Below, one piece after another: positions 4,487 to 32,090 of a DNA stretch of 44,151 nt. The first letter of the stretch is position 1. Every line of letters begins with the position of its first letter. The stretch is from a virus: the UHGV virus genome UHGV-0181040; one strand, given 5' to 3'. A program made the translations under genes and the position numbers. The notes under the pieces are model-generated. The model was not told where the DNA came from. It was given only the letters and a program-made list of their open reading frames with translations, and ran no database searches.

Positions 4487-4517
4487 TTGCACACCCCAAT
4501 ATAATAGGGTACTATTC
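4487..4517 (+). promoter_or_regulatory. sigma70-like promoter TTGCAC-17-TACTAT with embedded operator TAATAG-GGTA-CTATTC (regulon copy 1)
   Basis: Matches the leftward early promoter at 25925..25955 at 34 of 37 positions. 26 nt upstream of the ATG at 4544. Confidence 0.6.
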
Positions 4518-4543
4518 ACCTGTAACTTACTGAGGAAATAATT

Positions 4544-4870
4544 ATGCGTAAATTAGTATTAGCTCTGGGGTTTATGTCTTTTGCTACTTTTGGGTCCCCG
4601 TGCGGACAGGTATTTAGCGAATCTGTTCTTATGACTTCTGGTGTGCTTGATAAAGCCGACCCTACTATTGTAAAGGCATTTAAGGACTCTACAGTCCGTG
4701 AATGTGAGGCTGCCGTAGATGTCGGTAAATCAGGCCTACCTCCGCAGGCCGTAACATATACGGTAATACGTTCGGTAGAGAAAAACAGAGATGCATTCTA
4801 TAGCCTGCTGACAGCCACCCGCCTGCAAATGGTGATGACTGGCTGGGCGATAGGCGCGGAAAGTAAATAG
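4544..4870 (+). CDS. small secreted or periplasmic protein of unknown function (cargo gene)
   Basis: N-terminal signal peptide MRKLVLALGFMSFATFGSPCGQ. RBS GAGGAAATAATT. On the opposite strand to the surrounding tail genes. Confidence 0.5.
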   Translation: MRKLVLALGFMSFATFGSPCGQVFSESVLMTSGVLDKADPTIVKAFKDSTVRECEAAVDVGKSGLPPQAVTYTVIRSVEKNRDAFYSLLTATRLQMVMTGWAIGAESK

Positions 4871-4934
4871 TCGCCTTTATTTAAAGGAACGCACTGTGGT
4901 TAAATAGGACAAATCCTAAGCACGAGGAATAAGC

Positions 4935-6065
4935 ATGGCCAGGAAGAAAATAACCGACGAACAGTTGCAGGAAGAATTGAACGCCGGGATGAAGAATATC
5001 GATATCGCCCGTAAATACGGCATCTCCGACCGCGTAATTCGCATCCGTAAAGCGAAGTTGGCTAAGAAAGGTGTGGGCCACGGGCGTGATGTTAGTCATC
5101 TTGTGCCCGACGGCTACAAGATTAAAGGCACGTCGTCACTGGTGGACGAGTTCGGCAACACTAAGCTGCAATGGGTTAAGACCGACACCGATGCCGAACG
5201 TCAGGTAGAGTTGATGAAAGCCGTAATCGAAGGCATGAAGTCAGAGATTACGCCGGTTGCGCCTGTTAAAGCTGCACGCGTCAAACGCGACGATAAACTA
5301 CTCAATCTTTACACGGTATCTGATTTTCATCTCGGTATGCTGGCCTGGGCCGACGAGAGCGGCGACGACTGGGATATGAAGATTGCGGAAGACCTGTTTT
5401 CTCGCTGGTTCGATGCGGCGTTTCAGAAAGCACCAGATGCAGGAACTGGGGTTATTAATCTGCTGGGGGACTTCGCACACTTTGATAGTCTGGATGCCGT
5501 TACACCTGAGTCACGTCATGTGTTGGACGCGGATACTCGCTACCAGAAACTTGTCCGCTACATGATTCGTATGGTCCGCCGTGTTGTTGATATGGCTCTT
5601 GTTAAGCATAAAACTGTTCGCTTGCTTATCGTGCAAGGGAACCACGACGAAAGCGGAATGATTTGGTTAGCTGAGATGTTCAGGACGCTATACGACAATG
5701 AGCCTCGTGTGTTCGTCGATACGTCGCCGGATGTTTACAAGATGGTCCAACACGGCAAAACTACGCTGTTCTTTCACCACGGGCATAAAGCACGATTCGA
5801 TGTTATTGAACCGGTTATGATTGCCAAGTTCCGCAAAGCGTTCGGCGAGAGTGTTTACAGCTACGCTCACGTAGGGCACCTGCACCATCAGAAGATTGTA
5901 GAAAGCCGTAATATGATTGTTGAGCAGCATCGCACTCTCGCGGCGAAAGATGCATATGCCTCTCGCGGAGGGTGGATGTCGGGCCGTAGTGCAAACGTAA
6001 TTACTTATAGCGCCGAATATGGCGAGGTCGCACGTTTAACTATTTCACCGGAGATGCTGGGATGA
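4935..6065 (+). CDS. HTH DNA-binding domain fused to a calcineurin-like metallophosphoesterase (Mre11/SbcD-like or lambda-PPase-like fold)
   Basis: N-terminus IDIARKYGISDRVIRIRKAK is HTH-like. All five metallophosphoesterase motifs are present in order: DFHLG, GDFAHFD, GNHDE, HHGH, GHLHH. Confidence 0.7.
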   Translation: MARKKITDEQLQEELNAGMKNIDIARKYGISDRVIRIRKAKLAKKGVGHGRDVSHLVPDGYKIKGTSSLVDEFGNTKLQWVKTDTDAERQVELMKAVIEGMKSEITPVAPVKAARVKRDDKLLNLYTVSDFHLGMLAWADESGDDWDMKIAEDLFSRWFDAAFQKAPDAGTGVINLLGDFAHFDSLDAVTPESRHVLDADTRYQKLVRYMIRMVRRVVDMALVKHKTVRLLIVQGNHDESGMIWLAEMFRTLYDNEPRVFVDTSPDVYKMVQHGKTTLFFHHGHKARFDVIEPVMIAKFRKAFGESVYSYAHVGHLHHQKIVESRNMIVEQHRTLAAKDAYASRGGWMSGRSANVITYSAEYGEVARLTISPEMLG

Positions 6066-6292
6066 CTTCAAAATATGACCGCACAATGACAAATACCCAC
6101 GGCAGCACTATGACAGTAGACGTTTATGACGTTCTAAGGGCCTTCGACATCCGTGACCCGGCGCTACAGCACGCATTGAAGAAGTTATTGTGCATGGGCC
6201 TTCGCGGCCACAAAGATACCGGAACAGACTTAGCTGAGGCAATAGAAAGTCTGGAGAAGTTACGGGAGTATCGAAGCAACATTGATGAATAA
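6062..6292 (+). CDS. hypothetical protein, translationally coupled to the phosphoesterase gene
   Basis: ATGA start/stop overlap with the upstream gene. 76 aa. Followed by a terminator. Confidence 0.4.
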   Translation: MTSKYDRTMTNTHGSTMTVDVYDVLRAFDIRDPALQHALKKLLCMGLRGHKDTGTDLAEAIESLEKLREYRSNIDE

Positions 6293-6295
6293 GAA

Positions 6296-6321
6296 AAGGC
6301 CCCGAAAGGGGCCTTAGTTTT
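6296..6321. terminator. bidirectional rho-independent terminator AAGGCCCC-GAAA-GGGGCCTT
   Basis: 8-bp GC stem flanked by an A-tract upstream and a T-tract downstream. Lies between the convergent cargo cassette and the major tail gene. Confidence 0.65.
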
Positions 6322-7492: not shown

Positions 7493-7905
7493 AGCCTCTT
7501 GGTGAATGCAATAAAGTTAATTGACAATGGCCGTTTGGCCCATCCGTTTTCTACAATCAGCGGCCCCAGGCTAACCGATTGAACCTCGGCGCAGATGTCG
7601 TTACGTGAAAATGACTTACCTGCCTTAAACGCCGTGTTAAGTAAGTCTGCCATTTTATTGATTGGCGCGCTACCTTTCACCGATGCGTAGTTAATGTCAA
7701 CCTGATAAATACCAGAGCGTTGTTCCGTGAAGAACAAATCCGCCTGCTCGGTATCTGCCAGCAACATGTAACTTGCCAGATACGGCGTATCGGTTGACGT
7801 CGGCGCGTCGATGTTTTCAAGCGCAACCTTGATGCCGTTGGCGGTTCCGAAGGCTACCAGCGGCACATCGAACGCCTTTGTTAAGTCCTCAAAGTAGCCC
7901 ATCAT
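7489..7905 (-). CDS. tail terminator-like protein (called by position only)
   Basis: 138 aa, immediately upstream of the major tail gene, with overlapping stop and start. Confidence 0.35.
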   Translation of the reverse strand: MMGYFEDLTKAFDVPLVAFGTANGIKVALENIDAPTSTDTPYLASYMLLADTEQADLFFTEQRSGIYQVDINYASVKGSAPINKMADLLNTAFKAGKSFSRNDICAEVQSVSLGPLIVENGWAKRPLSINFIAFTKRL

Positions 7906-9267: not shown

Positions 9268-9269
9268 TT

Positions 9270-9782: not shown

Positions 9783-9785
9783 GAA

Positions 9786-9965: not shown

Positions 9966-10001
9966 GACCTTTCCTTATTACGGCCCCGAAGGGCCGTTGT
10001 A

Positions 10002-10343: not shown

Positions 10344-10404
10344 TGAGGAATCCTCTTAGTAAATGAAAAGAGGGACCGAAGTCCCTCTCGATTATAGCTT
10401 AACA

Positions 10405-11454
10405 TTAAGACCCGACACCAGTTACCAGGAAGGCAATCGGTACGTGCTTACGGTCAACAACACGGTTCCAGTTGGAGGCGTTCGCCAGGTCCTGCCAGGA
10501 AGCGGAGCGTGGGGTAGTCTCGGTGCCGTTGCCGGTGATTACTGCGCTGGTGAAGCTGTAGCCCAGTGGGTGCAGCAACCAGGTCTTACGGGTCCACAGG
10601 GTTTCGACGCCACCGCCGTTGCCGCGAGACGCTTCACGCTCATATTCCAGCGGGTTAGACGGGTTGCCTTCGCCATAACCGATAGCACCGTTGCCGAAGA
10701 TGATAGAGATGAACTTACGGCTACCGCCAGTACCGACTACGGTCATGCTGTCGTCAACAATCACACGATAACCCTGGTAGGTGGCGAACAGGGTGTCGTT
10801 GTCAGCGTTCTTGATGAAGTCAATAAGCTGCTGCTTACGGGCCTGCGCGTATACGAAGCTGTGCATAGCGATAGCACCCAGCACTTCACCGCCGTTGCCC
10901 ATCAGCGCATCACCCATAGTCTGAGTAGCGTCGATGAACGCGCCAGCGTCGAAGCCCAGAGTAGCAGACACGTCGATAACCATGTCGTTCTGCTCGTGGT
11001 ACGCATCGGTCGCGGCTACGTTGTCGTTGTACAGGCCGAGCGCGGTAGCAATCAAACGGCGTTGCGCCTGGCGCTGCCAGAAGTTATCCAGACGGGACGC
11101 TACGGATTGCAGCGGATTCTGGCTGGTCAGTTCGACAGTCAGGTCAGCCTGACCGAAACCTTCGTTCAGGTATGCAACGCGCGCCATCATCTCACCGGTC
11201 TGCACGTTACGCGGAGTTGCGATGTCCTGATATACATCGTTCGAGTAGTTCGGCTCGATAGAGGTATCAATCGCTTTCCAGAAAGGAATATTAGCGATGT
11301 TGGACGGGCCGCGGGCAATCTCGGCAGCGTATGGAGTCGGGGTCAGAATACCAGACTGGAAGAACGCGGTTTTTTCTACCGGGTCCTCGGTCATATAAGA
11401 CGCCAGGACCGGGACGTTGCCAGTTACGATATCGCCGATAGTGGTAATTGCCAT
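10405..11454 (-). CDS. major capsid protein
   Basis: 349 aa, follows the scaffold gene. Sequence is MAITTIGDIVTGNVPVLASYMTEDP..., typical in size and position for a major capsid protein. Confidence 0.8.
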   Translation of the reverse strand: MAITTIGDIVTGNVPVLASYMTEDPVEKTAFFQSGILTPTPYAAEIARGPSNIANIPFWKAIDTSIEPNYSNDVYQDIATPRNVQTGEMMARVAYLNEGFGQADLTVELTSQNPLQSVASRLDNFWQRQAQRRLIATALGLYNDNVAATDAYHEQNDMVIDVSATLGFDAGAFIDATQTMGDALMGNGGEVLGAIAMHSFVYAQARKQQLIDFIKNADNDTLFATYQGYRVIVDDSMTVVGTGGSRKFISIIFGNGAIGYGEGNPSNPLEYEREASRGNGGGVETLWTRKTWLLHPLGYSFTSAVITGNGTETTPRSASWQDLANASNWNRVVDRKHVPIAFLVTGVGS

Positions 11455-11456
11455 TA

Positions 11457-12158
11457 TTATTTCCTCAGGGCTTTAAGTTGCCGTTCAAATTCGGCAGGGT
11501 TCGATTTATACAGAGCTAAACGCTCCGCTTCGCTCATGTCTTTAAACGCTGGTGCGGCCCCGCCGCCTTTGCTACCGGAAGCCCCGCCGCCGGAAGCTGC
11601 ATTTGCTTTAATCAAATGCGAAAACGCTTTGTGTTCGCGCAGGTATTTGCGGAACTGTTCCTGGTCAGTTGTGATTACGTTTCCGTCTGCGCCAACAAAC
11701 TTAGTAACCACATCATCACCTTCGAACTCAGTCTTAACGAACGGTGTAAGAATGTCTACTGCTTCCGGGGTAATAAAGTCTCCCGCGAAAGAGCCTAACA
11801 CCGCTTTACGTTCGCTGCCGAGGATGCGCTCTGCCATTCTGGAGATGCGACCATCTTTCTCGGCTAGCACCGGGTCATACTGGCTACGAATCGTCTTTTC
11901 GAACTCGTCCATCTTACCAGCGGCTTTTAACGCCTCCTGGTGCGCGCGCTGCCGTTCTTCTTCGGCCTCTTTTGCTTTACGGGCGGCTTCTTTCTTCTCC
12001 GCCAACAACGCTTCCTGATTAGCCTTAAGCCCGGCCACTTCTTTCTCAATCAGTGCCTGAACTTCTTCGGCTGTGAACATTTTCGGCGCATCACCGCCAC
12101 CGGCCTTATCTTCTGCACCAGCTTTTTCCTGGAACGGATAACGTAAAAAACGATTCAT
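11457..12158 (-). CDS. scaffolding protein
   Basis: Charged coiled-coil EEVQALIEKEVAGLKANQEALLAEKKEAARKAKEAEEERQRAHQEALKAAGK. Immediately upstream of the major capsid gene. Probable ATG at 12158 (MNRFLRY). Confidence 0.6.
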   Translation of the reverse strand: MNRFLRYPFQEKAGAEDKAGGGDAPKMFTAEEVQALIEKEVAGLKANQEALLAEKKEAARKAKEAEEERQRAHQEALKAAGKMDEFEKTIRSQYDPVLAEKDGRISRMAERILGSERKAVLGSFAGDFITPEAVDILTPFVKTEFEGDDVVTKFVGADGNVITTDQEQFRKYLREHKAFSHLIKANAASGGGASGSKGGGAAPAFKDMSEAERLALYKSNPAEFERQLKALRK

Positions 12159-12240
12159 AGTCAGTATGTCCCCTGGACGTTGGAACCCGGGCCACCCGGA
12201 TTTACATGTCAAGAATAAATTATTCCAACATGCAAGGCAA

Positions 12241-12736: not shown

Positions 12737-13055
12737 GTTTCTCCTTTCTCGATAAGTAAAGCCCCGCCTTAAAGCGGGGCGCTAGGCCTTATCATTTAAA
12801 TATAGAAACGGCGTAATCTCAGTAAACCAGTTACTTTTTACACAAGCAATAGACTATGGCCCTTCCGAACGCGTCAGCGTAACTACACTCAGGACTAACG
12901 TCCCGCTCCGTTACCTGCCCGCGCCGCGGTCGCTTGTTCATACTTCACAAGCTCAGGAGGAGCTTAGCATATTTTTAGTGAAAAGTCAACTATTCGAATA
13001 GTTTATTCCGACATTTACAATTAAGTGGAATAACTGGAATACGTAAATAAATAGT

Positions 13056-13086
13056 TTGCAGGCACCAATATAATAGGGTACTATTC
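13056..13086 (+). promoter_or_regulatory. promoter TTGCAG-17-TACTAT with operator TAATAG-GGTA-CTATTC (regulon copy 2)
   Basis: A 36-nt block nearly identical to copy 3 at 15227..15257. 24 nt upstream of the HNH ATG. Confidence 0.6.
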
Positions 13087-13109: not shown

Positions 13110-13649
13110 ATGCTCACTAAACGTTCAGAAGCAATAGCCGCTGGCGATGATTATTACTTCACGGGAAAACCGTGTAAACGTGGGCATGTCGCGAAAAGGC
13201 ATGTCCGCACCGGGTGCTGTGAGTGCACTAAAGAGATACAAAAATCGTACCGAGAACGCAACGTTGTTTCTTGGGCGGCTAAAAACGCAAAATGGAGGCG
13301 AGAAAATAAAGACCGAATAGCTGAAATTGACGCAGAGTACCGTAAGAAAAACAAAACCGCCAGGAAAGCCCAAAGGCTGAAGTATAAAACGGCAAAAAGA
13401 GCCAGGAGTATAAACATCAGGAATGATGAATTTGACCTATTAGTATTCGAAGAAGCGCAGGAGCTATGTCAACTGCGAGCGGGCGAAACAGGTTTCTTAT
13501 GGCATATCGACCACATGCTGCCGCTGCGTGCTAAAACTGTCTCTGGGCTGCATGTCGCAGAAAACATACAAGTTATCCCTGCGGTTCTTAATCTCTTAAA
13601 AGGTAATAAATTAATTTTCACCGAGAGAGGCTCTTGGTTGGCTTCCTGA
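13110..13649 (+). CDS. HNH homing-type endonuclease
   Basis: Cys-rich N-terminus CKRGHVAKRHVRTGCCECTK and HNH core HIDHMLPLRAKTVSGLHVAENIQVIPAVLNLLKGNK. Free-standing on the opposite strand inside the head gene block. Confidence 0.75.
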   Translation: MLTKRSEAIAAGDDYYFTGKPCKRGHVAKRHVRTGCCECTKEIQKSYRERNVVSWAAKNAKWRRENKDRIAEIDAEYRKKNKTARKAQRLKYKTAKRARSINIRNDEFDLLVFEEAQELCQLRAGETGFLWHIDHMLPLRAKTVSGLHVAENIQVIPAVLNLLKGNKLIFTERGSWLAS

Positions 13650-13653: not shown

Positions 13654-13678
13654 AAGGCCCCATAACGGGGCCTTTTAT
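13654..13678. terminator. bidirectional terminator AAGGCCCC-ATAAC-GGGGCCTT
   Basis: Same stem as the 6296, 15621 and 38544 hairpins, followed by TTTAT. Confidence 0.6.
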
Positions 13679-14139: not shown

Positions 14140-15239
14140 TATTCCCCTTTCAGATAATCAGCAACACGTTTATCGAGTTCCGCCATCTGCTTAAGCGTCA
14201 GCGGATTCCCAAAACCATCTACAGATATTACGCGAAACTCTTCCGGCGATATACCGCTGTTACGGAAAATCTTACCGCGAACAGGGCCAAGCGCCTGGTC
14301 CTGAAACCACGCCGGTTGTTGTTTCAGGAACTCGTAATAGGTGGTGTCCGCGCTTACCTGGGTACCGCCGTTCGCACCCTTAGCCGTGCGTTTTGCACCT
14401 TTATCGAGGAAGTCGAACTCGGAACTTATCACCGGGGCTGTGGTACTTCGACAATTTGGATGCGCTGGCGGCATCGGACCCTTACCGATTTCCCACGTCA
14501 TTCCGTCTCTGGCCCTGCAAATCGTACTGGTGCGGCTGTCCAGCGTTGACACCCACTCGTACTTCTCGATAATGTCGTCGTTCTGGCGATACGTCTCGTT
14601 ACGGGCTTCGTTGGATATGTGGGACAGCGCGGTGCGGATTACTGTAGCTGCATTACGCTCGGAGATGTCCGCCAGCCCACCAGCGCCAACAACATTCTTA
14701 ACAATCTGCCGTGTTGTCTGGCCTTGTACAAAGCCCATCTTAACGCCGGTTACAAGGCGCGATACTTCAGTTTCACCCCAGCCTGACATCAGCTTAGTGA
14801 AGTCAACAGGCTTGTCACTTAGCGACAGCGGCTGAAACTCAGCTGCGGCCCATACCTGTTCGGCGGTGGGTGTAACAAATTCCGCGTTAACGTTGGTGGT
14901 CAGCGTTTTTACGTTCCACTCCGCCTCATACGCCGCCAGTTCCTTGAGGTCTTCTGTCAGCTTTGTTTGCCAGTCACCAGTAAGTCCTGTCAGTGCTTCT
15001 TCGAGGTCGCGTAACAATTTATTCAGTCGCGCTGTGCTACGACCATCGTCACCGAATAACAGCACCTGCTGTTTGATTTCGTCCCGCATTTCCCGAATGA
15101 ATGGTGCGAGGTCTTTCACTTCACCAGATGCGGTGCGTTGCAGCCATATCTGGTGGCTGATTAGGGATGTAAGTAAGCTCATAGGCCCTCCTGTAGTATC
15201 GCCAGTGTAACGCATAAAAATAATATTTGCAGACACCAA
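14139..15239 (-). CDS. head morphogenesis protein (Mu gpF / SPP1 gp7-like)
   Basis: C-terminal TSTICRARDGMTWEIGKGPMPPAHPNCRSTT signature. Directly downstream of the portal gene. Confidence 0.7.
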   Translation of the reverse strand: MVSANIIFMRYTGDTTGGPMSLLTSLISHQIWLQRTASGEVKDLAPFIREMRDEIKQQVLLFGDDGRSTARLNKLLRDLEEALTGLTGDWQTKLTEDLKELAAYEAEWNVKTLTTNVNAEFVTPTAEQVWAAAEFQPLSLSDKPVDFTKLMSGWGETEVSRLVTGVKMGFVQGQTTRQIVKNVVGAGGLADISERNAATVIRTALSHISNEARNETYRQNDDIIEKYEWVSTLDSRTSTICRARDGMTWEIGKGPMPPAHPNCRSTTAPVISSEFDFLDKGAKRTAKGANGGTQVSADTTYYEFLKQQPAWFQDQALGPVRGKIFRNSGISPEEFRVISVDGFGNPLTLKQMAELDKRVADYLKGE

Positions 15240-15257
15240 TATAATAGGGTACTATTC
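15227..15257 (+). promoter_or_regulatory. promoter TTGCAG-17-TACTAT with operator TAATAG-GGTA-CTATTC (regulon copy 3)
   Basis: Near-identical to copy 2. 30 nt upstream of the ATG at 15287, with RBS AGAGGAGGAA. Confidence 0.6.
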
Positions 15258-15286
15258 AGTTAAACGACAAAGAGGAGGAATAAAAC

Positions 15287-15616
15287 ATGATTAATGCTAA
15301 AGAAGAGTTGCTCGCCCATCTGGATGGTAAAGATGTAGTTAAATGCGCCTGGTTTGCGGACTATGATGCGGATGACGCGGATTACGATTTCGTTGAGGGG
15401 AGTAAATGGCTCCTGCGGGAGAATTACTCCCGCGGAGAATGGGAAAGCCTAATGGCTGAACTTGATTTTGAATATCACAACGGTCACGGCATTCAAAACT
15501 TCTTCGGGGTAATTTGGTACGAAGATGGTACATGGTCTTCTCGCGGAGAATACGATGGTTCTGAATGGTGGGAATATAATGTCGTGCCGGATATGCCGGA
15601 AGAACTTAAGCGCTAA
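15287..15616 (+). CDS. small highly acidic Trp/Tyr-rich protein; candidate DNA-mimic-type anti-restriction or anti-defence protein (cargo gene)
   Basis: 109 aa, rich in D/E and W (ADYDADDADYDFVEGSKWLL..., EWWEYNVVPDMPEE). Has its own operator-controlled promoter and terminator. On the opposite strand between the portal and head morphogenesis genes. Confidence 0.45.
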   Translation: MINAKEELLAHLDGKDVVKCAWFADYDADDADYDFVEGSKWLLRENYSRGEWESLMAELDFEYHNGHGIQNFFGVIWYEDGTWSSRGEYDGSEWWEYNVVPDMPEELKR

Positions 15617-15620: not shown

Positions 15621-15645
15621 AAGGCCCCTTTCGGGGCCTTTTCTT
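15621..15645. terminator. bidirectional terminator AAGGCCCC-TTTC-GGGGCCTT
   Basis: GC stem plus TTTTCTT. Lies between the convergent acidic-protein and portal genes. Confidence 0.65.
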
Positions 15646-21510: not shown

Positions 21511-21539
21511 AATATAATTGGTGTAAGAGTAATAGTCAA
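21511..21539 (-). promoter_or_regulatory. sigma70-like promoter TTGACT-17-TATATT (minus strand)
   Basis: Same hexamers as the promoter at 32062..32090. The spacer carries CACCAAT and a partial operator half-site TAATAG. Confidence 0.45.
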
Positions 21540-21565
21540 CTAGTCATTGCAGAAAATAGATAAAA

Positions 21566-21597
21566 AAAATCCCGGCTGGGTCAGGGCCGGGATAAAA
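21566..21597 (-). terminator. strong rho-independent terminator (minus-strand sense) after the endolysin gene
   Basis: Plus-strand run of A(8) followed by TCCCGGC-TGGGTCAG-GGCCGGGA, giving a run of U(8) on the minus-strand transcript. Confidence 0.7.
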
Positions 21598-23640: not shown

Positions 23641-24068
23641 TAGAAGTATTCCCCGCACGTTTTACATACTTTCGTACCGAACGGTGCGGAGCCGTCTGTT
23701 ACTACATAATAGAAACTGTAGGGCCATCCCTGAGTATCGTCCTTACGGCAACCGGATTGTTCAGGCTGTACAGGCGTCGGAGTACACCGGCAATTTACCG
23801 ACGCCCCGGGCACATGTTCGCCCACTACATATCGCTGGCCGCCGTCGATGTACCCTCCCTTGCGTATAAGTTTGTACGCCTCCACGTCACCAGTAGCCTG
23901 GGCCAATGCCAGATGCAACTCAGCCACCAGTGCCGAAGCGTCACGTAACTGATTCTTAAGTGACTGCACCTCCTGCGCCAGGTCTTCACACTGGTTGTTA
24001 TTTACCTGCTGCCGTAGCTGGTCAATCAGGTACTCGAATACTTCGTTTTTAGTGTTCATATTCTTCAC
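23640..24068 (-). CDS. coiled-coil plus Cys-rich C-terminal domain protein
   Basis: 142 aa. Coiled coil EDLAQEVQSLKNQLRDASALVAELHLALAQA, then a C-terminal CRCTP...CRKD...CKTCGEYF. Confidence 0.35.
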   Translation of the reverse strand: MKNMNTKNEVFEYLIDQLRQQVNNNQCEDLAQEVQSLKNQLRDASALVAELHLALAQATGDVEAYKLIRKGGYIDGGQRYVVGEHVPGASVNCRCTPTPVQPEQSGCRKDDTQGWPYSFYYVVTDGSAPFGTKVCKTCGEYF

Positions 24069-24177
24069 TCACTCCGTTATAGGCGCCGTTGTAGTCTCCG
24101 TCGCAGATGAACGGGTAGAGCATATCTTCGTACTCGTCCTGCAACTCACCCAAAGTTACTTCGCTATAATCTTTCAT
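24049..24177 (-). CDS. small acidic protein (42 aa), first gene after the promoter at 24207..24237
   Basis: RBS GAGAGGAGAGACAGAAG before the ATG at 24177. Confidence 0.25.
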   Translation of the reverse strand: MKDYSEVTLGELQDEYEDMLYPFICDGDYNGAYNGVSEEYEH

Positions 24178-24206: not shown

Positions 24207-24237
24207 GAATAGTAGCCTATTCTATCTTAGCGTGCAA
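24207..24237 (-). promoter_or_regulatory. promoter TTGCAC-17-TACTAT (minus strand) with a perfect palindromic operator GAATAG-N4-CTATTC (regulon copy 4)
   Basis: On the plus strand: GAATAG 24207..24212 and CTATTC 24217..24222. The minus-strand -35 is at 24237..24232. Confidence 0.55.
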
Positions 24238-24395
24238 GTAAATTTTATTGGTGTTTGTATTGTTGCATCTCCTGCAATAGTCGCTTGGATTGTTGCGTTT
24301 CGTGAAAGTGTCGCTTTTTGACGACACTAATCTAAAGTTGTACGCTGCTGTGTAGCAGCGTAAGTTACAAAGCCAAATAGTAACCTATTGACCTG

Positions 24396-24593
24396 TTACA
24401 CCAGCGATGGCGGCTCCGGTAACGGCATCCAGTGAGTTACGTCATCACTACTGATATTTGAGTTACGCGGCGCCCAACAATCCCAGAAACCGTCGCAGTC
24501 CCGCCACATCACCTCAACGTTACCCCCATCCGAAACCAGCACATATTCAAAATCATCAGGCATCTGCTCACTGCACTTAATCCACTCACTCAT
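24396..24593 (-). CDS. DUF551-like phage protein
   Basis: C-terminal THWMPLPEPP and overall DUF551 pattern (WIKCSEQMPDDFEYVLVSDGG). Confidence 0.5.
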   Translation of the reverse strand: MSEWIKCSEQMPDDFEYVLVSDGGNVEVMWRDCDGFWDCWAPRNSNISSDDVTHWMPLPEPPSLV

Positions 24594-25186: not shown

Positions 25187-25227
25187 ACGACGCTGACAAT
25201 TAAAATAAACAGGTAATTATTCATAAC

Positions 25228-25485: not shown

Positions 25486-25500
25486 TAACGGCAACCTCCC

Positions 25501-25892: not shown

Positions 25893-25924
25893 AACCCTCA
25901 CTCCTCTGTCTCGTTTCAATAAGT

Positions 25925-25955
25925 GAATAGTATCCTATTATGTTGGGGTGTGCAA
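25925..25955 (-). promoter_or_regulatory. leftward early promoter TTGCAC-17-TACTAT with operator GAATAG-TATC-CTATTA (regulon copy 5)
   Basis: The reverse complement matches copy 1 (4487..4517) at 34 of 37 positions. Confidence 0.6.
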
Positions 25956-26344
25956 GAGAATAGTTACGTTGCCGTTGTGATTCTTTCGTTTAATGGGGTA
26001 GCGAAACGAAACGAACGTGGTGCCGAAGGCACCAAGAGTGAGTGAGTGAGCTTGCGAATCAATAACTTATATCATGTGGTAAAATTTAAATAGACGGGGG
26101 CTTTCTTGCGACTTGCTGTTACTTTGAGGAAACTTAGATACTGACGTTGTCGAAGTGACTCTCAGCGCCCGTCCTTTGGGGCCGGGCTTTGGTCACCAGA
26201 GACTTAAGAATAATGTTTCTAAGTAATTCAGAACTAGTGTCCTTCGATACGTTGATTTTACAGCTACATTTTATTTTGTCAATAGGTTGTGTTCGGTTAT
26301 TGTAGGTGTTATAGTTGTTTCACTTGATAAAGAGGGCTTGTAAA

Positions 26345-26524
26345 ATGACACAGAAAGAAGTAGCAGACTTAATCGGAGTTTCTCCTATGACGCTTAATCG
26401 CTGGCTTCGGTCTGGTAAGTTCCCGGAGTGTTGCCGGGTTATTAACGGCTACCGGCAGCCAGGTACTTTTGACCGCGCTACTGTGGAGGCGTGGATTAAG
26501 GAGAACGTGAAAGATGCTAACTAA
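26345..26524 (+). CDS. AlpA/excisionase-like HTH regulator
   Basis: MTQKEVADLIGVSPMTLNRWLRSGKFPE is a typical AlpA-family HTH. Confidence 0.55.
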   Translation: MTQKEVADLIGVSPMTLNRWLRSGKFPECCRVINGYRQPGTFDRATVEAWIKENVKDAN

Positions 26525-26789
26525 ATTCCAGAAACATATATTAATGTGCGCACGCAGACTGACCGAGGCGAACGGCGCTTTTACGGTAGACGGGCTTCGG
26601 AGATACCGGTTAGATAATTACGGTGTAAATCCGATTAAACATGCTTTGGATGTTCTCGAGCAACACGGAGAGGTTCTTAATAAAGGAAAGTTTTATCGGG
26701 CAAAAAGAGCAACTCCGATTACAGAGAAAGCGAGAAGTATTGGAAAAGTGTTGGTCCCTGAGGGTAATATCTCCCGCGACCTGGAATAA
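26514..26789 (+). CDS. hypothetical protein
   Basis: 91-aa ORF between the HTH gene and the primase-helicase gene. Confidence 0.35.
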   Translation: MLTKFQKHILMCARRLTEANGAFTVDGLRRYRLDNYGVNPIKHALDVLEQHGEVLNKGKFYRAKRATPITEKARSIGKVLVPEGNISRDLE

Positions 26790-26847
26790 AAGAAAGCCCC
26801 GACGCGGTGAACGCCGAGGCCAAATTACTTACTGAAGGAATTATAGT

Positions 26848-29109
26848 ATGTCCGATGTAATTTTATCCTACTCGTGGTCTCGTCGCAACGCGCGGGCAGA
26901 GAAAAAGGATATAAACGTCAGAACCACACACACGGCAACGCTGGACGACCTGAAAGAGCTAATTCAGCCGCTCGATGCCGTTCGCGGCTGGATTAACCCT
27001 AAGACCGCGCCTGGCTATATCACCGCCGCGTGCGATTCTACTCACAGCACCGTGAGAGACCCGGAAACAGGAGACTTTAAGCAAGCGCGTAAAGGCTTCT
27101 TCTATCGCTGTGACGCGTCTGTAAGCAAATCGTCGCTGGCGTACCTGGACTTCGACAGTGCAACGCCGGAAGAGTATCAGGAAGCGGTGCGCATGGTTAA
27201 GCGCAGCCGCCAGGCGATGTGCCTCTACACCACGGCATCACATACCGACGAGTCACCGCGCTTTCGTGTCGTCATGCCGCTGGGCCGCCCGGTTGAAGGC
27301 GGCGACATCATCCGTGTTCGTCATGGCTTACTGGAGCACTTCTTCAAAGGCATGGGCGCCGACCGCAGCGGATTCACTCTGTCACAGCCGATGTACCTGC
27401 CACCGGTTGGCTCTACCGTTATCTGGTCGCGCCGCAACGACCTGATTGACCCGGACGAGTTACTGGAAGGCGTCCCGGATTACGAGGTGAGCAGCGCATC
27501 GGATTACCAGATACCGGAAGAACTGCGCACCGCGTTTACCGATGCGTTCGAAGCCCTGGCGTTCGAGTATGGTGGCGTCATGACGCCGCGCGGCCTGAAA
27601 ATGCCAGCTACACCGGAACACGCAGAAAACTATAGCGACCCGACCCCGCGCCCGGACGACTTCCTGCTGTGCTTCCCGCGCGAAGGGTACGAAGCGCCTA
27701 ACGTAACCATGATTCACGACACAGACATCACGGCAACCGAAGGCATGTCGCCGAAGGAGGTGTGGAGGTATGTGTGCGATGCGACCGGGCTGCCGTTCAG
27801 TGAAGTCGCGGAGGCTATTGGCTGGGGTGCACGTGAATCTGTCTCATGCAGCCTCGACGACCTGGAAGACGACGAGGATGACGAGTTACCGCAACCGGTA
27901 AAGGCTGATTTCGTCGTTGAAGGGTACATGCCGTCGGATTGCATATGGGATATCGTCGGGGAATCTGGCACGTACAAATCATTCTATACGCTGGGGATGA
28001 TGTACCTTAGCGCCGCCGGATACCGGTTCGCGGGGGCGGATACTCAGCGTTGTCACCATTTCTATATCGACGGTGAGGGTGGCGCAGCTACCCGCACGCG
28101 TATCGATGCACTCGCAGCTAAATATGGCGCGGAAGGTAAAGATTATGTACATGTTATCGATATGGGCGAAGTCGGCAAACTGAAAAGCCTGATTAAGTTA
28201 ATGCGCGAAATTGCTGGCGACGGGCCTATTGGCATGGTCGCGTTCGACACCCTTAACCAGACGCTGGCTCTGACGATTGATAAGTTCGACGAGAACAGTT
28301 CATCGACGGTGATTGGCATGGGTAAAGTTATCGCCATCCTGAAAGAAGTACGCGATGCGACTAAAGCCGCGGTAGGCGTTGTCCATCATACGCCGAAAGG
28401 CGGAAAGAAAGCCCGAGGTAGCGGCGCTCTGTATGCGGGTGTCGACGTGGAGCTGACAATCGAACGCGCTACCGACCGCCAGATAAACGTATACCACTCG
28501 AAATTTAAGCACGGGCCTCAACAGAAGACAGTTGGCATGGTTCTGGAGTCTGTACAGTTCCGTGAAGCGCCGCCGCCGAAAGAGTACCGTGCTGTTGAGT
28601 TCCTGGGCAGCACCGAGGAATACGGCACAATCGTAAACCTGGACTTGCCGGAACCACACAAAGCGCTTGTGCTGATGCCGTGGGGCTTCGAGCCGTTCAA
28701 GACTGACGAGGAGAAAGAGCGGGAAGAAGGGCTGACAAAGGAAGGTAAAACGGCTGTTAAAGAAAAGGTAGGTCAGTTTGAGAAACTGGATTCCAAAGAG
28801 GCTACGGTTATTTACGCATTAGGTAAATTGCAGGAGCAGGGTGACGACAAGCGAGGGTTTTCTATGTCAACTATCGTCAAAGCCGCGAAAGAAGATAGTT
28901 ATGGCGTACCGATTAACGCAAATAATGATCTTCGAAAGAAACTGGAAGAGATGCACGAGGCCGGGGTTATCGTCTCGGGTCTGGATAACAACAACAGGCC
29001 AATACCTAAGCAATATCGGCTGCCGTGGGGTATAAACGACAACAAGATTCCGAAGACAATATATGAACCGAATGAGATGCTGGTGGTGACAGAGGAGGAT
29101 TTGGAATAG
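26848..29109 (+). CDS. primase-helicase (N-terminal primase/polymerase-like domain plus RecA-like AAA_25/RepA-type helicase)
   Basis: Walker A GESGTYKS, Walker B/arginine-finger region, 753 aa. Acidic linker SLDDLEDDEDDE. Confidence 0.7.
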   Translation: MSDVILSYSWSRRNARAEKKDINVRTTHTATLDDLKELIQPLDAVRGWINPKTAPGYITAACDSTHSTVRDPETGDFKQARKGFFYRCDASVSKSSLAYLDFDSATPEEYQEAVRMVKRSRQAMCLYTTASHTDESPRFRVVMPLGRPVEGGDIIRVRHGLLEHFFKGMGADRSGFTLSQPMYLPPVGSTVIWSRRNDLIDPDELLEGVPDYEVSSASDYQIPEELRTAFTDAFEALAFEYGGVMTPRGLKMPATPEHAENYSDPTPRPDDFLLCFPREGYEAPNVTMIHDTDITATEGMSPKEVWRYVCDATGLPFSEVAEAIGWGARESVSCSLDDLEDDEDDELPQPVKADFVVEGYMPSDCIWDIVGESGTYKSFYTLGMMYLSAAGYRFAGADTQRCHHFYIDGEGGAATRTRIDALAAKYGAEGKDYVHVIDMGEVGKLKSLIKLMREIAGDGPIGMVAFDTLNQTLALTIDKFDENSSSTVIGMGKVIAILKEVRDATKAAVGVVHHTPKGGKKARGSGALYAGVDVELTIERATDRQINVYHSKFKHGPQQKTVGMVLESVQFREAPPPKEYRAVEFLGSTEEYGTIVNLDLPEPHKALVLMPWGFEPFKTDEEKEREEGLTKEGKTAVKEKVGQFEKLDSKEATVIYALGKLQEQGDDKRGFSMSTIVKAAKEDSYGVPINANNDLRKKLEEMHEAGVIVSGLDNNNRPIPKQYRLPWGINDNKIPKTIYEPNEMLVVTEEDLE

Positions 29110-29111
29110 GC

Positions 29112-29138
29112 AAAAAGAAAGGGGCGTTAAGCCCCTTC
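29112..29138. terminator. bidirectional terminator AAAGGGGC-GTTA-AGCCCCTT between convergent genes
   Basis: GC stem flanked by an A-tract and TTCAC. Confidence 0.55.
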
Positions 29139-29342
29139 ACCGAACGCTAGCCACTTGGCGTCTACTTCCAGCACCTCCGCCAGTTTAAACAGCGTCGCCG
29201 GGCGGACATCCTGAGTTACACCGAGTGCCAGTTGGTTAATCGCTCCCTGGGAAACTCCGGCCAGCACAGCCAGACGGCGCTGGGAGATGCCGAGTTCTTT
29301 ACGGCGTTGCTCTACACGGATGCCTAGTTCAGATGGTTGCAT
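29127..29342 (-). CDS. XRE-family (Cro/CI-like) HTH regulator
   Basis: The 71-aa sequence contains LGISQRRLAVLAGVSQGAINQL. Transcribed divergently from the second rightward operon. RBS AAGGAG. Confidence 0.7.
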   Translation of the reverse strand: MQPSELGIRVEQRRKELGISQRRLAVLAGVSQGAINQLALGVTQDVRPATLFKLAEVLEVDAKWLAFGEGA

Positions 29343-29371
29343 GTTAATTACTCCTTAGTCAGTTGATATGT

Positions 29372-29387
29372 GAATAGTACCATATTA
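29372..29387 (-). promoter_or_regulatory. operator GAATAG-TACC-ATATTA overlapping the presumed promoter of the XRE gene (regulon copy 6)
   Basis: About 30 nt upstream of the XRE ATG. A TACTAT -10-like hexamer lies on the minus strand within the site. Confidence 0.5.
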
Positions 29388-29406
29388 ATTATTTTAAGAA
29401 AGCCCA

Positions 29407-29435
29407 TTGACACGTGAATAGTCCGCTATTATAGT
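29407..29435 (+). promoter_or_regulatory. strong rightward promoter TTGACA-17-TATAGT with operator GAATAG-TCCG-CTATTA in the spacer/-10 (regulon copy 7)
   Basis: Consensus -35 and exact 17-bp spacer. 32 nt upstream of the ATG at 29467. Confidence 0.6.
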
Positions 29436-29466
29436 TAGCCCATACCAAACGAGAGGAGAGAAACAA

Positions 29467-29976
29467 ATGCTAGACCAATTCTTAAAATTACTGGAACGTT
29501 TCGTAGTTGCCCATGAACTGATGGCTGCAAATAGTGTGAAACGGCCGGTGCAGCCGACTGAGTGTGTAGGTGAAATGCTTGTAGATGTATCGGTTACGGG
29601 AGAGGTGCTTGAAGTCGACCCAGGTACGGGCGTCGGGAAAGAAATCCCGGTCGAAGGTGAAGACATCGTTGACGCTAAACCCGCGGAAGAAGAGAAGCCG
29701 AAACGCAAGCCGCGTAAACCTAAAGTAGAGGAACCGACGCCAGAACCGGAAGAAGAGAAAGAAGAGGTAGATTACCAGTCTCTTCGTGACCAGATTCAGG
29801 CTATCGACGATGCGATTAACGAAGGTCCTAGCGATGCCGCGTGTGATGATTCCGATGAACTGTTGGAAGAGTTCACCGGTAAGAAGATGAAGATTGCCGC
29901 GATTAAAGACGAAGACCTGGCCGAATATCTGGAACGCCTGACGGCAATCAAGAACAAGTATTTCGAAGAAGAATAA
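29467..29976 (+). CDS. promoter-proximal very acidic protein with a central KPKRKPRKPK patch (candidate DNA mimic or replication accessory)
   Basis: 169 aa with long D/E runs (PEPEEEKEEVDYQSL...DDSDELLEEF). Confidence 0.4.
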   Translation: MLDQFLKLLERFVVAHELMAANSVKRPVQPTECVGEMLVDVSVTGEVLEVDPGTGVGKEIPVEGEDIVDAKPAEEEKPKRKPRKPKVEEPTPEPEEEKEEVDYQSLRDQIQAIDDAINEGPSDAACDDSDELLEEFTGKKMKIAAIKDEDLAEYLERLTAIKNKYFEEE

Positions 29977-29981
29977 CTATC

Positions 29982-30005
29982 CCGCGGCCTTCGGGCCGCT
30001 TTAAC
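29982..30005 (+). terminator. hairpin GCGGCC-TTCG-GGCCGC plus TTTAAC (weak terminator or attenuator)
   Basis: Seen by eye after the acidic gene. Confidence 0.35.
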
Positions 30006-30019
30006 AGAGGGTCGGAAAT

Positions 30020-30250
30020 ATGTGTAAAAACGATGGTGGACAGGCTTTTCCTGTTGCAGGGTCAGACCACAATTACTCTTGGGAAGGCATGACGTTACGT
30101 GATTATTTCGCGGCTAAAGCCCTTCAAGGGTGGCTTGCTAGTTACCCAGCGGACGCAGTACACCCTGTTGCCGCGGGGAACACAGCGCAAGTAGCGCAAA
30201 TGGTGTACATCATGGCTGATGCAATGCTGGAAGCGAGGGGCGCCGAATGA
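30020..30250 (+). CDS. hypothetical protein
   Basis: 76-aa ORF with RBS GAGGGTCGGAAAT. Confidence 0.35.
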   Translation: MCKNDGGQAFPVAGSDHNYSWEGMTLRDYFAAKALQGWLASYPADAVHPVAAGNTAQVAQMVYIMADAMLEARGAE

Positions 30251-30519
30251 TTTACCAACTCTACCGCGCCGTAGACAGGCGGGATAATACGGAGGCGTTG
30301 TGGCTGTTGCGTGCGCCGTCCGGTGCGCACCAGATGGAAGAGATGGCGTACTTAGGCAAAGTACCGCGGCCTAAAGACATAGGCCGTCACGTTTCGCAGA
30401 TTAAGCGCACGACTTTCGCCAAACCTGACTTTTATGTCTTCGAGTCGATGTATAGCTGGGCTATGCATTGCCACCACCAGACACGACATTTAATTGACCA
30501 GTGGGAGAGCAGGGTATGA
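30247..30519 (+). CDS. hypothetical protein
   Basis: 90 aa, ATGA-coupled. Confidence 0.35.
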   Translation: MIYQLYRAVDRRDNTEALWLLRAPSGAHQMEEMAYLGKVPRPKDIGRHVSQIKRTTFAKPDFYVFESMYSWAMHCHHQTRHLIDQWESRV

Positions 30520-31817
30520 TTTTAAAAGAACGCGGCGGCAATAACGATGTGCACGCCTTACTGTCACCGTCGGGGGCTAAAAAGTGGCTAAGCTGCGCGG
30601 CATCGTTGGCCTGTGAAAAAGATATTCCTAACACGTCGGGTAAAGCCGCGGTATTAGGTACAGCCATGCACACCATAGCAGAGATGCACCTTAACCAGTA
30701 CATCAAAGACACTGCGTTGCCGTTAGAGCGTGAGGTCGGTGCTTACGTGCTGGATGAAGGTAAAGGCCAGATTAAGGCGCTAATCAGCCCGATGAAAGGC
30801 GCGGTACTGATTACGGCGGACATGATTGAGCAGGTGCGCAAGTACACCGACTACTGCAAACCGATTATCGATGTAGCGACTTATGCCAAGCTCGAGATGC
30901 GTGTCAATCTTACTGAGGTATTGCATCCTGGATACATCCATAGCCCCGGTGGGAGGCAAGAAGAAATACAAACCTTCGGAACAGCCGACTTAGTGGCGGT
31001 TATAGAAGGCTTTACAGGTGAAAGTGACTCAGCGATGCTCATTATGGGCGACCTGAAAACAGGACGGCATCGTGTCGAAGCGAAAGAAAACAAGCAGCTT
31101 ATGCTTTACGCTCTCGGTGTTTATCGCCGACTCAAGAGACGCTATAACATCACCGTTGTTCGTCTGGTCATATTCCAGCCGTATGCAGGCGGCGCGTCGG
31201 AGTGGGACATCTCAGTTGAAGGACTGGAACTGTTCGCTAAGTTCGCACAGAAACGGGCACTGTTAGCCCTTGATGCATATTTCCGCGGTAAGAAGAACCT
31301 GAAAGCGTCGGACTTCAAACCGTCGGTAGATGGATGTCAGTGGTGCCGGTTCTCTGAACAGTGTGCCGCGCGTACAAAGACGGTTAATTCTGTACTGGCT
31401 GAAGAACTGGAAGACGACTTTGCGCTGGAACTGACGCCGGAGCAACTCGTCGCTGAGTATGAGAAGTTGCCGTTGTTGCGTCAGCACATCGACAAGGTTG
31501 AGAAAGCGATGGCCGCCGCGTTGCATTCCGGTAAGAAAGTTCCTGGGTACAAGTTGGTTGAAGGTAAGATGGGCAACCGTGCGTGGAAAGATGCGAAGGA
31601 GGTAATAGACGCCGCAGAATTTTATGAAATAGACCGGAAAATGCTGTTTAAGGCGTCTCTTGTGTCTCCGAAAGAGGCAGAAGCCGCGTTTAAAAATACC
31701 GATGCGTGGCCTATTCTCGAAAAACTAATTACACGCAAGCCCGGTGCGCCATGTGTCACAACGGCAGACGACAAACGTCCTGAGTGGAATCAGGTAACAG
31801 AGGAGGATTTAGAATGA
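30516..31817 (+). CDS. Cas4/RecB-like PD-(D/E)XK exonuclease (DUF2800-type)
   Basis: Motifs GTADLVAV and GDLKTG, C-terminal cysteine cluster CQWCRFSEQC. Upstream of a DUF2815-like ssDNA-binding gene and the DNA polymerase. Confidence 0.65.
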   Translation: MILKERGGNNDVHALLSPSGAKKWLSCAASLACEKDIPNTSGKAAVLGTAMHTIAEMHLNQYIKDTALPLEREVGAYVLDEGKGQIKALISPMKGAVLITADMIEQVRKYTDYCKPIIDVATYAKLEMRVNLTEVLHPGYIHSPGGRQEEIQTFGTADLVAVIEGFTGESDSAMLIMGDLKTGRHRVEAKENKQLMLYALGVYRRLKRRYNITVVRLVIFQPYAGGASEWDISVEGLELFAKFAQKRALLALDAYFRGKKNLKASDFKPSVDGCQWCRFSEQCAARTKTVNSVLAEELEDDFALELTPEQLVAEYEKLPLLRQHIDKVEKAMAAALHSGKKVPGYKLVEGKMGNRAWKDAKEVIDAAEFYEIDRKMLFKASLVSPKEAEAAFKNTDAWPILEKLITRKPGAPCVTTADDKRPEWNQVTEEDLE

Positions 31818-32065
31818 TTCGTAAAATGTTCAGAGTAATTGGCGGTTTTTTGGCGTGTATTGTTTTCTGGGTTCTTATGCTGCCGCTAACGTTACCAACA
31901 TTTATCTTAATGTGTATTACGGTATGTATAGCACAAACTCGCGACATCGAAGCCATCCTGAGCGATAAATCGTGGAAGACACAGGCGCTTCGATTCATAA
32001 ACAACATGAAATGGCCAAGCAAGTATATTGAGATAGTTGAGAAAATAACTGGCTGGAAGGGTTGA
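31814..32065 (+). CDS. small membrane protein (2 transmembrane segments)
   Basis: The ATG sits inside the upstream C-terminal codons, which double as the RBS GAGGAGGA. Hydrophobic run FLACIVFWVLMLPLTLPTFILMCITV. Confidence 0.4.
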   Translation: MIRKMFRVIGGFLACIVFWVLMLPLTLPTFILMCITVCIAQTRDIEAILSDKSWKTQALRFINNMKWPSKYIEIVEKITGWKG

Positions 32066-32090
32066 CTCCTGAATAGTTAGCTATTATATT
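32062..32090 (+). promoter_or_regulatory. internal promoter TTGACT-17-TATATT with operator GAATAG-TTAG-CTATTA in the spacer (regulon copy 8)
   Basis: The -35 overlaps the stop codon of the upstream gene. 56 nt upstream of the ssDNA-binding protein ATG. Confidence 0.55.

Follow-up and report, generated by a model that had tools for sequence, protein, structure and literature searches.

The virus genome UHGV-0181040, a stretch of 44,151 nt that was analysed as a whole and is called the window here, raises the question of why a lytic phage should carry the same short inverted repeat at one promoter after another, and of which protein, if any, reads it. The repeat is a 16-bp dyad, KAATAGNNNNCTATTM (KAATAG-N4-CTATTM, i.e., (G/T)AATAG-N4-CTATT(C/A)), with a 14-bp core, AATAG-N4-CTATT. 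The answer proposed here is that the dyad is most likely an operator, and that its predicted binder is the phage's own 71-amino-acid (aa) XRE protein, a relative of phage 434 Cro.

The window was identified as a complete, circularly permuted genome of a K1G-like lytic siphovirus of Escherichia coli (Kagunavirus, Guernseyvirinae), with piecewise identities of 88–92% to K1G, K1H, Golestan-type phages and the BASEL Kagunavirus isolates; its orientation is opposite to that of K1G. Genes for structure, lysis and packaging point leftward (from about 24200 to 1300 and from 44060 to 38576) and those for replication rightward (26345-38406), and the leftward structural block is broken by three small gene cassettes on the + strand. 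Several hundred Guernseyvirinae isolates have been sequenced, many of them put forward for therapy, and descriptions of the subfamily call it strictly lytic. The GenBank annotation of K1G contains no promoter or operator features. Little is understood of temporal control in lytic siphoviruses that depend on host RNA polymerase, and the isolation of Kagunavirus and Jerseyvirus phages for therapy and biocontrol is widespread.

Occurrence, registers and conservation of the dyad

It was found that the dyad occurs in eight exact copies in the window, against 0.01 expected from shuffled sequence, and that 16 matches are reached at up to two mismatches, against 4.3 expected, the additional matches in coding sequence looking like background. 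A scan with a symmetrised position weight matrix, for which shuffles give 0.73 matches at a score of 12 or more, set 12 sites clearly above background, namely nine strong copies and the weaker ones at 12980, 21530 and 24375. Thereafter the score falls to background, the next match (40832, score 12.8) lying in coding sequence. The initial annotation of this DNA, which had proposed such a scan, listed eight copies and placed them exclusively outside the bodies of open reading frames (ORFs). Seven of these are exact (4502, 13071, 15242, 24207, 25925, 29416 and 32071), but the copy at 29372-29387 (GAATAGTACCATATTA) carries one mismatch, and a ninth strong copy at 35697-35712 (TAATAGCGAACTATTA), beyond the end coordinate then considered, had been missed. 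While the listed eight do lie outside ORF bodies, the ninth overlaps the last ~13 codons of an ORF at 35255-35737. The expected concentration in intergenic promoters was nevertheless borne out, with 11 of the 12 sites being intergenic on a crude gene map in which coding sequence takes up about 92%. Core-promoter placement likewise applies to 11 of the 12, the sole promoter-less copy being that at 24375, and all nine strong copies lie, as judged from sequence alone, over pairs of hexamers with a 17-bp spacing.

The dyad is set against the –35 and –10 hexamers in three registers within the window and in a fourth in the Salmonella phage Ent1. In class A, TTGCA(C/G)-N9-TAATAGGnTACTATTC, the –10 TACTAT lies within the right half-site and the dyad extends from about –20 to –5, centred at about –12.5; this class comprises three + strand copies (4502, 13071 and 15242) and two – strand copies (24207 and 25925), with 29372 as a degenerate member whose –35 is poor. 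In class B, TTGAC(A/T/G)-N3-dyad, the last two bases of the dyad begin the –10 (TATAGT or TATATT) and the dyad extends from about –26 to –11, centred at about –18.5; its members, 29416, 32071 and 35697, are all on the + strand. In the third arrangement, seen in leftward promoters at 21530 (late operon) and 12980, the –35 TTGACT is covered by a dyad with one mismatch; the fourth, that of Ent1, reads TTGCAT-N6-dyad, with a –10 TATTAT made by the right half-site. Additionally, at the promoter divergent from the XRE gene the gap between –35 and dyad is 3 or 4 nt, depending on the relative. With their 17-bp spacing, the predicted promoters match the sigma70 consensus at 10–11 of 12 positions in class B and at 7 of 12 in class A.

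Most of the promoter assignments made initially were reproduced, both TTGCA(C/G)-17-TACTAT in copies 1 to 5 (4502 to 25925, numbered by position) and, for class B, TTGACA-17-TATAGT (29416) and TTGACT-17-TATATT (32071), to which TTGACG-17-TATAGT (35697) was added. An exact 17-bp promoter had been assigned to every listed copy; at 29372, TACTAT is paired with a poor –35, CTTTCT, and TTCACG-16-TAAAAT offers an alternative. Copies 2 and 3 are indeed identical at 36 of 37 positions, counting from TTTGCAG, whereas copies 1 and 5 agree on recount at ~33 of 37 and not at 34. A sigma54 reading of TTGCAC was rejected, since the look-alike TAGCAC-N5-TTGCAC is found only in copy 1 and nothing lies at –24 elsewhere. 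The same applies to TATAAT within copies 1–3 as the true –10, which is not kept in copies 4 and 5 and lacks a –35 at a 17-bp spacing, and to an RNA-level role of the palindrome, which precedes the predicted start in classes A and B, Rfam finding nothing in the window.

Conservation was assessed in 39 Kagunavirus sequences (the window, K1G and 37 IMG/VR loci) at six orthologous promoters, with 20–26 unique sequences each. Both half-sites proved essentially invariant at all six, the half located in the spacer included, while the central N4 has 4–8 variants per promoter and the adjacent spacer and flank bases drift. For its part, sigma70 has no sequence requirement in the spacer. In Jerseyvirus, 41 exact TAATAG-N4-CTATTA copies were found, with all 13 loci represented; Ent1 has six copies when one mismatch is allowed (0.08 expected), and the Serratia phage Tsm2 carries the dyad at three orthologous promoters. 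Conservation in Jersey-like and related phages, for which the initial annotation had called, is thus present at orthologous promoters in Jerseyvirus and Tsm2. The exact dyad was not found in the Cornellvirus-like phages (VSiA, SE1 and IMG/VR relatives); VSiA and SE1 carry a related dyad, TAWTA-N6-TAWTA, in six copies per genome against 0.11 expected, and these copies lie in promoters, the orthologous late promoter included.

Judged by these comparisons, the dyad is a separately selected DNA element and more than promoter sequence. Since its half-sites are selected, its centre is free and its sequence shifts between lineages, it bears the signature of a dimeric DNA-binding protein. A half-site geometry fitting a dimeric helix-turn-helix (HTH) protein had been recognised from the outset, in agreement with the conservation of the dyad independently of the –35 and –10 hexamers. 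The prediction that the dyad is an operator is well supported by these sequence comparisons.

The motif itself is already published. In fBC-Eco01, a Kagunavirus, PHIRE yielded a "phage promoter" consensus, tgAATAGTa-ccTATTat-T, in seven copies, which was ascribed to a phage-encoded RNA polymerase (PMC9825357), and this consensus, from a sister phage, describes the dyad's own sequence element, with a copy number in the same range. Seven PHIRE promoters were also reported for vB_EcoS-Golestan, in a main text without sequences, their identity with the dyad being assumed here (PMC7203180). The fBC-Eco01 paper does not discuss dyad symmetry, overlap with sigma70 hexamers or a link to XRE (PMC9825357), and neither these symmetry and XRE aspects nor the operator reading or the lineage-specific variant is noted in the papers found. 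The ascription to a phage RNA polymerase is very probably wrong, because sigma70-type hexamers frame the motifs and no RNA polymerase gene is annotated in K1G, Ent1, VSiA, SE1 or Tsm2, the proteins of the window not all having been scanned individually.

The candidate binder and its rivals

Two HTH proteins are found by Pfam near the regulatory regions, XRE/HTH_3 and HTH_17. The first, the candidate repressor, is encoded at 29127-29342 on the – strand by a monocistronic gene with a strong ribosome-binding site and a terminator at 29118-29138. It matches Pfam HTH_3 with an E-value of 2.3e-12, and its best solved relative (phmmer against the PDB) is phage 434 Cro, also of 71 aa (E 5.4e-7, residues 6–68). 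Its single-sequence AlphaFold2 (AF2) model, with a predicted local distance difference test (pLDDT) score of 84, has five helices. The top Foldseek match of this model is again 434 Cro (2cro; template-modelling (TM) scores 0.73/0.79, 40% identity), with further fold matches to the 434 repressor, HipB, SinR, P22 C2 and the restriction–modification (R-M) controllers C.AhdI, C.BclI and C.Esp1396I. In Sf101, which carries the 434 immunity region, the operators read between cI and cro (ACAAGAAAAACTGT, ACAAGATACATTGT and ACAAGAAAGTTTGT) are 14 bp long with a 5-4-5 layout, the same geometry as AATAG-N4-CTATT, with which they have A1, A4 and G5 in common. The Gln aligned with Q28 of 434 Cro is invariant throughout the XRE orthologues, and in the 434 structures Q28 contacts A1 of the half-site.

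Gene position and distribution point in the same direction. The XRE gene is flanked by two dyads 43–45 bp apart, one in its own promoter and the other in the spacer of the divergent strong promoter. The protein is present in all four dyad-bearing lineages (97%, 51%, 42% and about 42% identity), which is not so for HTH_17. In RNA sequencing of Kagunavirus K1B4, an HTH-domain gene, which may or may not be that of XRE, is among only four early genes (PMC12645636). With its likeness to 434 Cro, its flanking dyads and its phyletic profile, the protein named as binder in the initial annotation appears to be the best candidate, and as predicted binder of the dyad it is the best inference, about as probable as all rival explanations taken together.

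According to the proposed mechanism, which is given an even chance, the 71-aa 434-Cro-like protein would bind the dyad as a dimer and repress transcription by the host RNA polymerase. Because every strong copy lies within –35 to –5 of a sigma70-type promoter, a bound dimer should exclude RNA polymerase, and occupancy of the dyads would in this way repress transcription. Exact-match dyads lie at three promoters of the replication operons, at the three cassettes of the + strand and at both the early (leftward) and the lysis operon, and one-mismatch dyads at the XRE promoter and the late structural promoter(s). As XRE accumulated, early and middle transcription and the cassettes would be damped first, and XRE's own promoter and the late promoters, with their weaker sites, would respond last. 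Such a network would be a Cro-like governor, not a bistable switch.

The initial annotation had spoken of a lambda-like global switch. Its layout is roughly right for the early (leftward) and lysis operons, for the promoters of XRE and of replication and for the three cassettes on the + strand, but not every unit is covered, and the idea of a single global gate was not sustained: the promoter region of the HTH_17/helicase-primase operon (25941-26344) contains no dyad copy even at two mismatches. The likeness to lambda was overstated as well, given the strictly lytic character of the subfamily and the lack of a cI partner and an integrase. Neither cI nor integrase is annotated in K1G, Ent1, VSiA, SE1 or Tsm2, and lysogeny genes are reported absent from sister phages (PMC7203180, PMC9825357).

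Several points weigh against repression by XRE as the function of the dyad. It is not obvious what would be gained by repressing the late and lysis promoters with the same protein, the argument from graded affinity is based on single mismatches, and class A is weak by consensus (TTGCAC/TACTAT, 7 of 12), so that an activating or dual role may have to be reckoned with. Moreover, control is not global, because the HTH_17/primase transcription unit has no dyad copy. The recognition helices read SQGAINQ in Kagunavirus, SQSLITH in Jerseyvirus, SQGMLNH in Tsm2 and TQSAISH in Cornellvirus-like phages, and the first three share the dyad. In particular, the Kagunavirus and Jerseyvirus proteins are ~50% identical and differ at four of the seven positions of this helix while their dyad is the same, which weakens a one-protein, one-site argument. 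Simple covariation of recognition helix and half-site was not found, the Jerseyvirus helix being nearer to that of Cornellvirus, with its different dyad, than to that of Kagunavirus. Finally, no dyad adjoins the XRE gene of Tsm2. As a separate observation, this Tsm2 gene is preceded (L064, 6740-6790) by a 7-11-7 inverted repeat, TATAGTG-N11-CACTATA, directly after a TATAGT –10-like hexamer, and the repeat could be a different operator or a leader hairpin.

The AATAG-N4-CTATT core is common to phages of E. coli, Salmonella and Serratia despite differing XRE recognition helices, which would also be in line with a host protein, a conserved Enterobacterales transcription factor or nucleoid protein that binds the dyad and couples phage expression to host physiology. 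The 5-4-5 layout also bears a loose likeness to the trp operator, ACTAG-N4-CTAGT. However, the Cornellvirus-like phages have a different dyad in the same host, Salmonella, which fits phage-encoded specificity better, and a cognate-looking phage protein is encoded between two dyad copies. We know of no enterobacterial factor with an AATAG-N4-CTATT motif, and a host binder is considered unlikely.

It could also be supposed that there is no dedicated binder and that the palindrome is part of a phage-typical promoter module which was duplicated and spread with mobile cassettes, its symmetry stemming from –10-like sequences on both strands, as where divergent promoters overlap. The near-identical copies 2 and 3 (36 of 37) do head mobile-looking cassettes, one of them endonuclease VII-like, the right half-site of class A contains the –10, promoter-like matches are present on the reverse strand of the copies at 4502 and 15242, and in the literature the motif is taken for a promoter and nothing more (PMC9825357). 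Nevertheless, the dyad of class B is invariant within the spacer while the neighbouring spacer bases vary, the dyad is kept in three or four registers relative to –35 and –10, and also over the –35 at the late promoter, and the promoter-less copy at 24375 is conserved. Furthermore, promoter-like matches of the quality of the reverse-strand ones occur at chance frequency, 19 being found against 16.6 expected. A palindrome without a binder is therefore regarded as improbable.

A similarly low probability is assigned to XRE acting as a dual regulator, which would raise transcription from the weak class A promoters and lower it from the strong class B ones in the manner of R-M controller proteins or phi29 p4. 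The difference between the classes in consensus match (7 against 10–11 of 12) and in register (6 bp apart) and the fold matches to C.AhdI, C.BclI and C.Esp1396I speak for it. However, class A retains the critical TTG, A2 and T6 of the –10 and a spacing of 17 bp and can therefore function on its own, and to our knowledge a site centred at –12.5 over the –10 hexamer is not an activating position.

Least probable is another phage protein as binder, be it the excisionase-like HTH_17 (26345-26524) or some small early protein so far overlooked, with XRE limited to its own locus or otherwise engaged. Kagunavirus and Jerseyvirus, with the exact dyad in common, have HTH_17 proteins of 70% identity; HTH_17 is missing from the Cornellvirus-like phages, which have a different dyad, and its gene opens the one operon that has no dyad. 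However, it was ruled out as a general binder, since Tsm2 has the Kagunavirus-type dyad at three orthologous promoters and the Cornellvirus-like phages retain a clearly related dyad at orthologous promoters, and HTH_17 was not found in VSiA, SE1 or Tsm2 by tblastn or by jackhmmer to E 10. HTH_17/Xis-like proteins, moreover, usually bind direct repeats as monomers, not 10-bp-spaced palindromes.

If repression by XRE through the dyad is true, one small protein and a 14-bp site would explain the coordination of about ten promoters, and the published label of a phage RNA polymerase promoter would be corrected. Mutations in the operator or in XRE would then provide a handle for engineering or attenuating these phages, and the question of repressor-based cross-exclusion between co-infecting virulent relatives would be raised. 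A further extension is tentative and probably does not hold, namely that across the Guernseyvirinae nearly all transcription units run through one Cro-like protein and a promoter-embedded operator with lineage variants (AATAG-N4-CTATT and TAWTA-N6-TAWTA). The system would then be both a genome-wide timer and an "immunity group" among virulent phages, in which the XRE of the first genome would silence late-arriving genomes with the same operator.

Individual sites and neighbouring elements

The promoters of this section, with the genes that they drive, are predictions from sequence. The three + strand cassettes are each headed by a class A promoter. In the first (4487-4517, +), the –35 TTGCAC (4487-4492) precedes the dyad TAATAGGGTACTATTC (4502-4517), whose right half-site contains the –10 TACTAT (4510-4515). 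It drives the cassette at 4544-6292, which encodes a 108-aa protein of unknown function, an SbcD-like exonuclease and a 76-aa protein and ends at the terminator 6296-6315, and the site has an orthologous copy in K1G at 14751. The second promoter (13056-13086, +; TTGCAG-17-TACTAT; dyad 13071-13086) drives the gene at 13110-13649, closed by the terminator 13654-13674. The product is endonuclease VII-like (PHROG 1035, E 5e-30), and this cassette, which sits between head genes, looks like a mobile or homing-type insertion. The third (15227-15257, +; TTGCAG-17-TACTAT; dyad 15242-15257) drives a 109-aa gene at 15287-15616, with a terminator at 15621-15640. Because the 13056 promoter is 36/37 identical to that of this unrelated cassette at 15287, the sequences suggest that the promoter-operator module may have been copied along with, or captured by, incoming cassettes. 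On the minus strand of copies 1 and 3 (4498-4526 and 15241-15270), GTTACA-17-TATATT and TTGTCG-18-TATTAT are aimed into the leftward tail and head genes, and a single dyad might serve two back-to-back promoters there.

A repeated bidirectional terminator, AAGGCCC(C)-loop-(G)GGGCCTT, is present at 6296-6315, 13654-13674, 15621-15640, 32792-32811 and 38545-38564, where it ends each + strand cassette and two replication operons, and its family recurs in K1G, Ent1 and VSiA. Since the same terminator closes each + strand cassette, the cassette can be described as a standard module of promoter and dyad, gene or genes, and terminator.

On the – strand, the perfect palindrome GAATAGTAGCCTATTC (24207-24222) belongs to a class A promoter at 24207-24237, with its –10 TACTAT at 24209-24214 and its –35 TTGCAC at 24232-24237. 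The targets are a 42-aa ORF (24049-24177), a 142-aa ORF and the holin/endolysin block, which ends at a terminator near 21570. The class A promoter at 25925-25955 (–; dyad 25925-25940) drives small early-type ORFs from 25892 down to 24396. Just past the endolysin terminator lies the late-operon promoter, TTGACT-17-TATATT (21511-21545, –), with the one-mismatch dyad GACTAGTTGACTATTA (minus strand, 21530-21545) over its –35. This copy is invariant among 22 unique Kagunavirus sequences and has the orthologues TAATAGTTGACTAGTA in Ent1 and TAATAGTTGCATAATA in VSiA. The weakest member is a possible promoter, TTGACT-17-TAAGCT (12961-12995, –), whose one-mismatch dyad (12980-12995) also lies over the –35 and which would possibly restart leftward transcription past the 13110-13649 cassette. 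The site is conserved in K1G and out of register in Ent1. Within 12966-12995, an extra half-site abuts the dyad (aaACTATTC directly before GAATAGTTGACTTTTC, with CTATTC meeting GAATAG), giving a second, tail-to-tail palindrome, ACTATTCGAATAGT, which is kept in K1G.

The promoter-less copy, with the exact 14-bp core CAATAGGTTACTATTT (minus strand, 24375-24390), lies between the stop of the DUF551 gene and the early-left terminator hairpin, has no recognisable –35 and could be a roadblock or a vestigial promoter. In the region of the DUF551 3' end, four relatives (L014, L020, L023 and L034) have two direct repeats of GGTGTAACAGG(T) ahead of the 24375-type dyad, and the window has one copy (24391-24402).

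At the regulator gene, the one-mismatch dyad in the XRE promoter (29372-29387, –; minus strand TAATATGGTACTATTC) is kept in nearly all of 38 IMG/VR loci. Divergent from it, the class B promoter TTGACA-17-TATAGT (29407-29435, +) has its spacer filled by the dyad GAATAGTCCGCTATTA (29416-29431) and drives 29467-31817, which encodes a 169-aa protein, small ORFs and a PD-(D/E)XK exonuclease. Two further class B promoters follow on the + strand, TTGACT-17-TATATT at 32062-32090 (dyad 32071-32086), which drives the DUF2815 and DNA polymerase genes and whose dyad has orthologues in Ent1 (32155) and Tsm2 (4170), and TTGACG-17-TATAGT at 35688-35716 (dyad 35697-35712), which drives 35749-38406 (methyltransferase, helicase). 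Downstream of the former, the leader of the DUF2815 gene (32091-32145) contains aatcactggCCGGGcagatCCCGGagtaaactgaaaa and a short hairpin and is preserved near base for base in Kagunavirus, Ent1 and VSiA and altered in Tsm2, while the promoter spacer around the dyad upstream of it diverges among these phages. The leader may be a conserved RNA element, e.g., a processing or translation-control site.

The divergent early-left and HTH_17/primase operons are separated by a non-coding stretch of ~400 bp (25941-26344). It contains a leftward near-consensus promoter without dyad, TTGACA-16-TAAAAT (26282 to 26255), a GC hairpin (26018-26034) and a GAGT repeat (~26039-26053). The dyad-less promoter is conserved in only 4 of the 39 Kagunavirus sequences and was rejected as a general feature of the group. 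The stretch could be an origin or encode a small RNA; Rfam found nothing in it, as in the rest of the window. Non-coding repeats also lie downstream of the helicase-primase gene in two relatives: VSiA (L003, 37000-37300) has G-rich GGGGGAG runs, and Tsm2 (L064, 9565-10090) has three copies of TTCCGCACA, two of them extended to CTTCCGCACA(A/G)A, together with inverted copies, TGTGCGGAA. These repeats are candidate origins or iterons. Lastly, a 551-aa ORF on the + strand (10363-12018), antisense to the major capsid and scaffold genes, is almost certainly spurious and not a gene.

Comparison with known regulatory systems

The closest known parallel is phage 434. The 71-aa XRE protein is, like 434 Cro, a single-domain, five-helix XRE/HTH_3 protein, with 434 Cro as its best match in both sequence and fold. 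As in OR and OL of 434, the 14-bp core is dyad-symmetric in a 5-4-5 arrangement with a variable centre and shared half-site bases (A1, A4, G5), the operators overlap core promoters, and two of them lie between divergent promoters at the regulator gene. Of the features of the 434 Cro/HTH_3 class, the five-helix fold, the dyad with half-site centres about one helical turn apart and a variable, non-contacted centre, and the promoter overlap are thus present in sequence and model. However, the half-site is AATAG and not ACAAG, and the recognition helix SQGAINQ and not KQQSIQL, and about 12 sites are distributed over 31 kb, one per promoter, instead of in clusters of three within one immunity region. 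Unlike 434, this phage type has no cI partner, integrase or lysogeny. The lambdoid cI/cro switch is represented by a Cro-sized XRE only, cI and integrase being unannotated in five relatives.

In having a small predicted repressor with many short sites across the genome, structural regions included, the system resembles the C1 operators of P1 and the gp71-type stoperators of L5/Bxb1 (PMC9283540, PMC6550527). Those phages are temperate, however, their repressor maintains lysogeny and their sites are asymmetric (PMC9283540, PMC6550527), whereas here the sites are symmetric and the phage strictly lytic. Stoperators, in addition, lie within transcribed regions, are bound by a monomer and block elongation in an orientation-dependent manner (PMC9283540, PMC6550527), while the sites described here lie in core promoters except for 24375. 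With symmetric sites, 11 of 12 of them in core promoters, the dyads do not have the layout of stoperators. Controller (C) proteins of R-M systems are also small XRE dimers that use dyads covering or adjoining the –35, regulate their own gene and bring about a time delay, but they control one or two promoters of a single operon by means of a pair of adjacent operators, first activating cooperatively and then repressing, and have no genome-wide sites. Occlusion of a promoter by an XRE dimer would be a textbook mechanism, and the surprise would lie only in where it is deployed.

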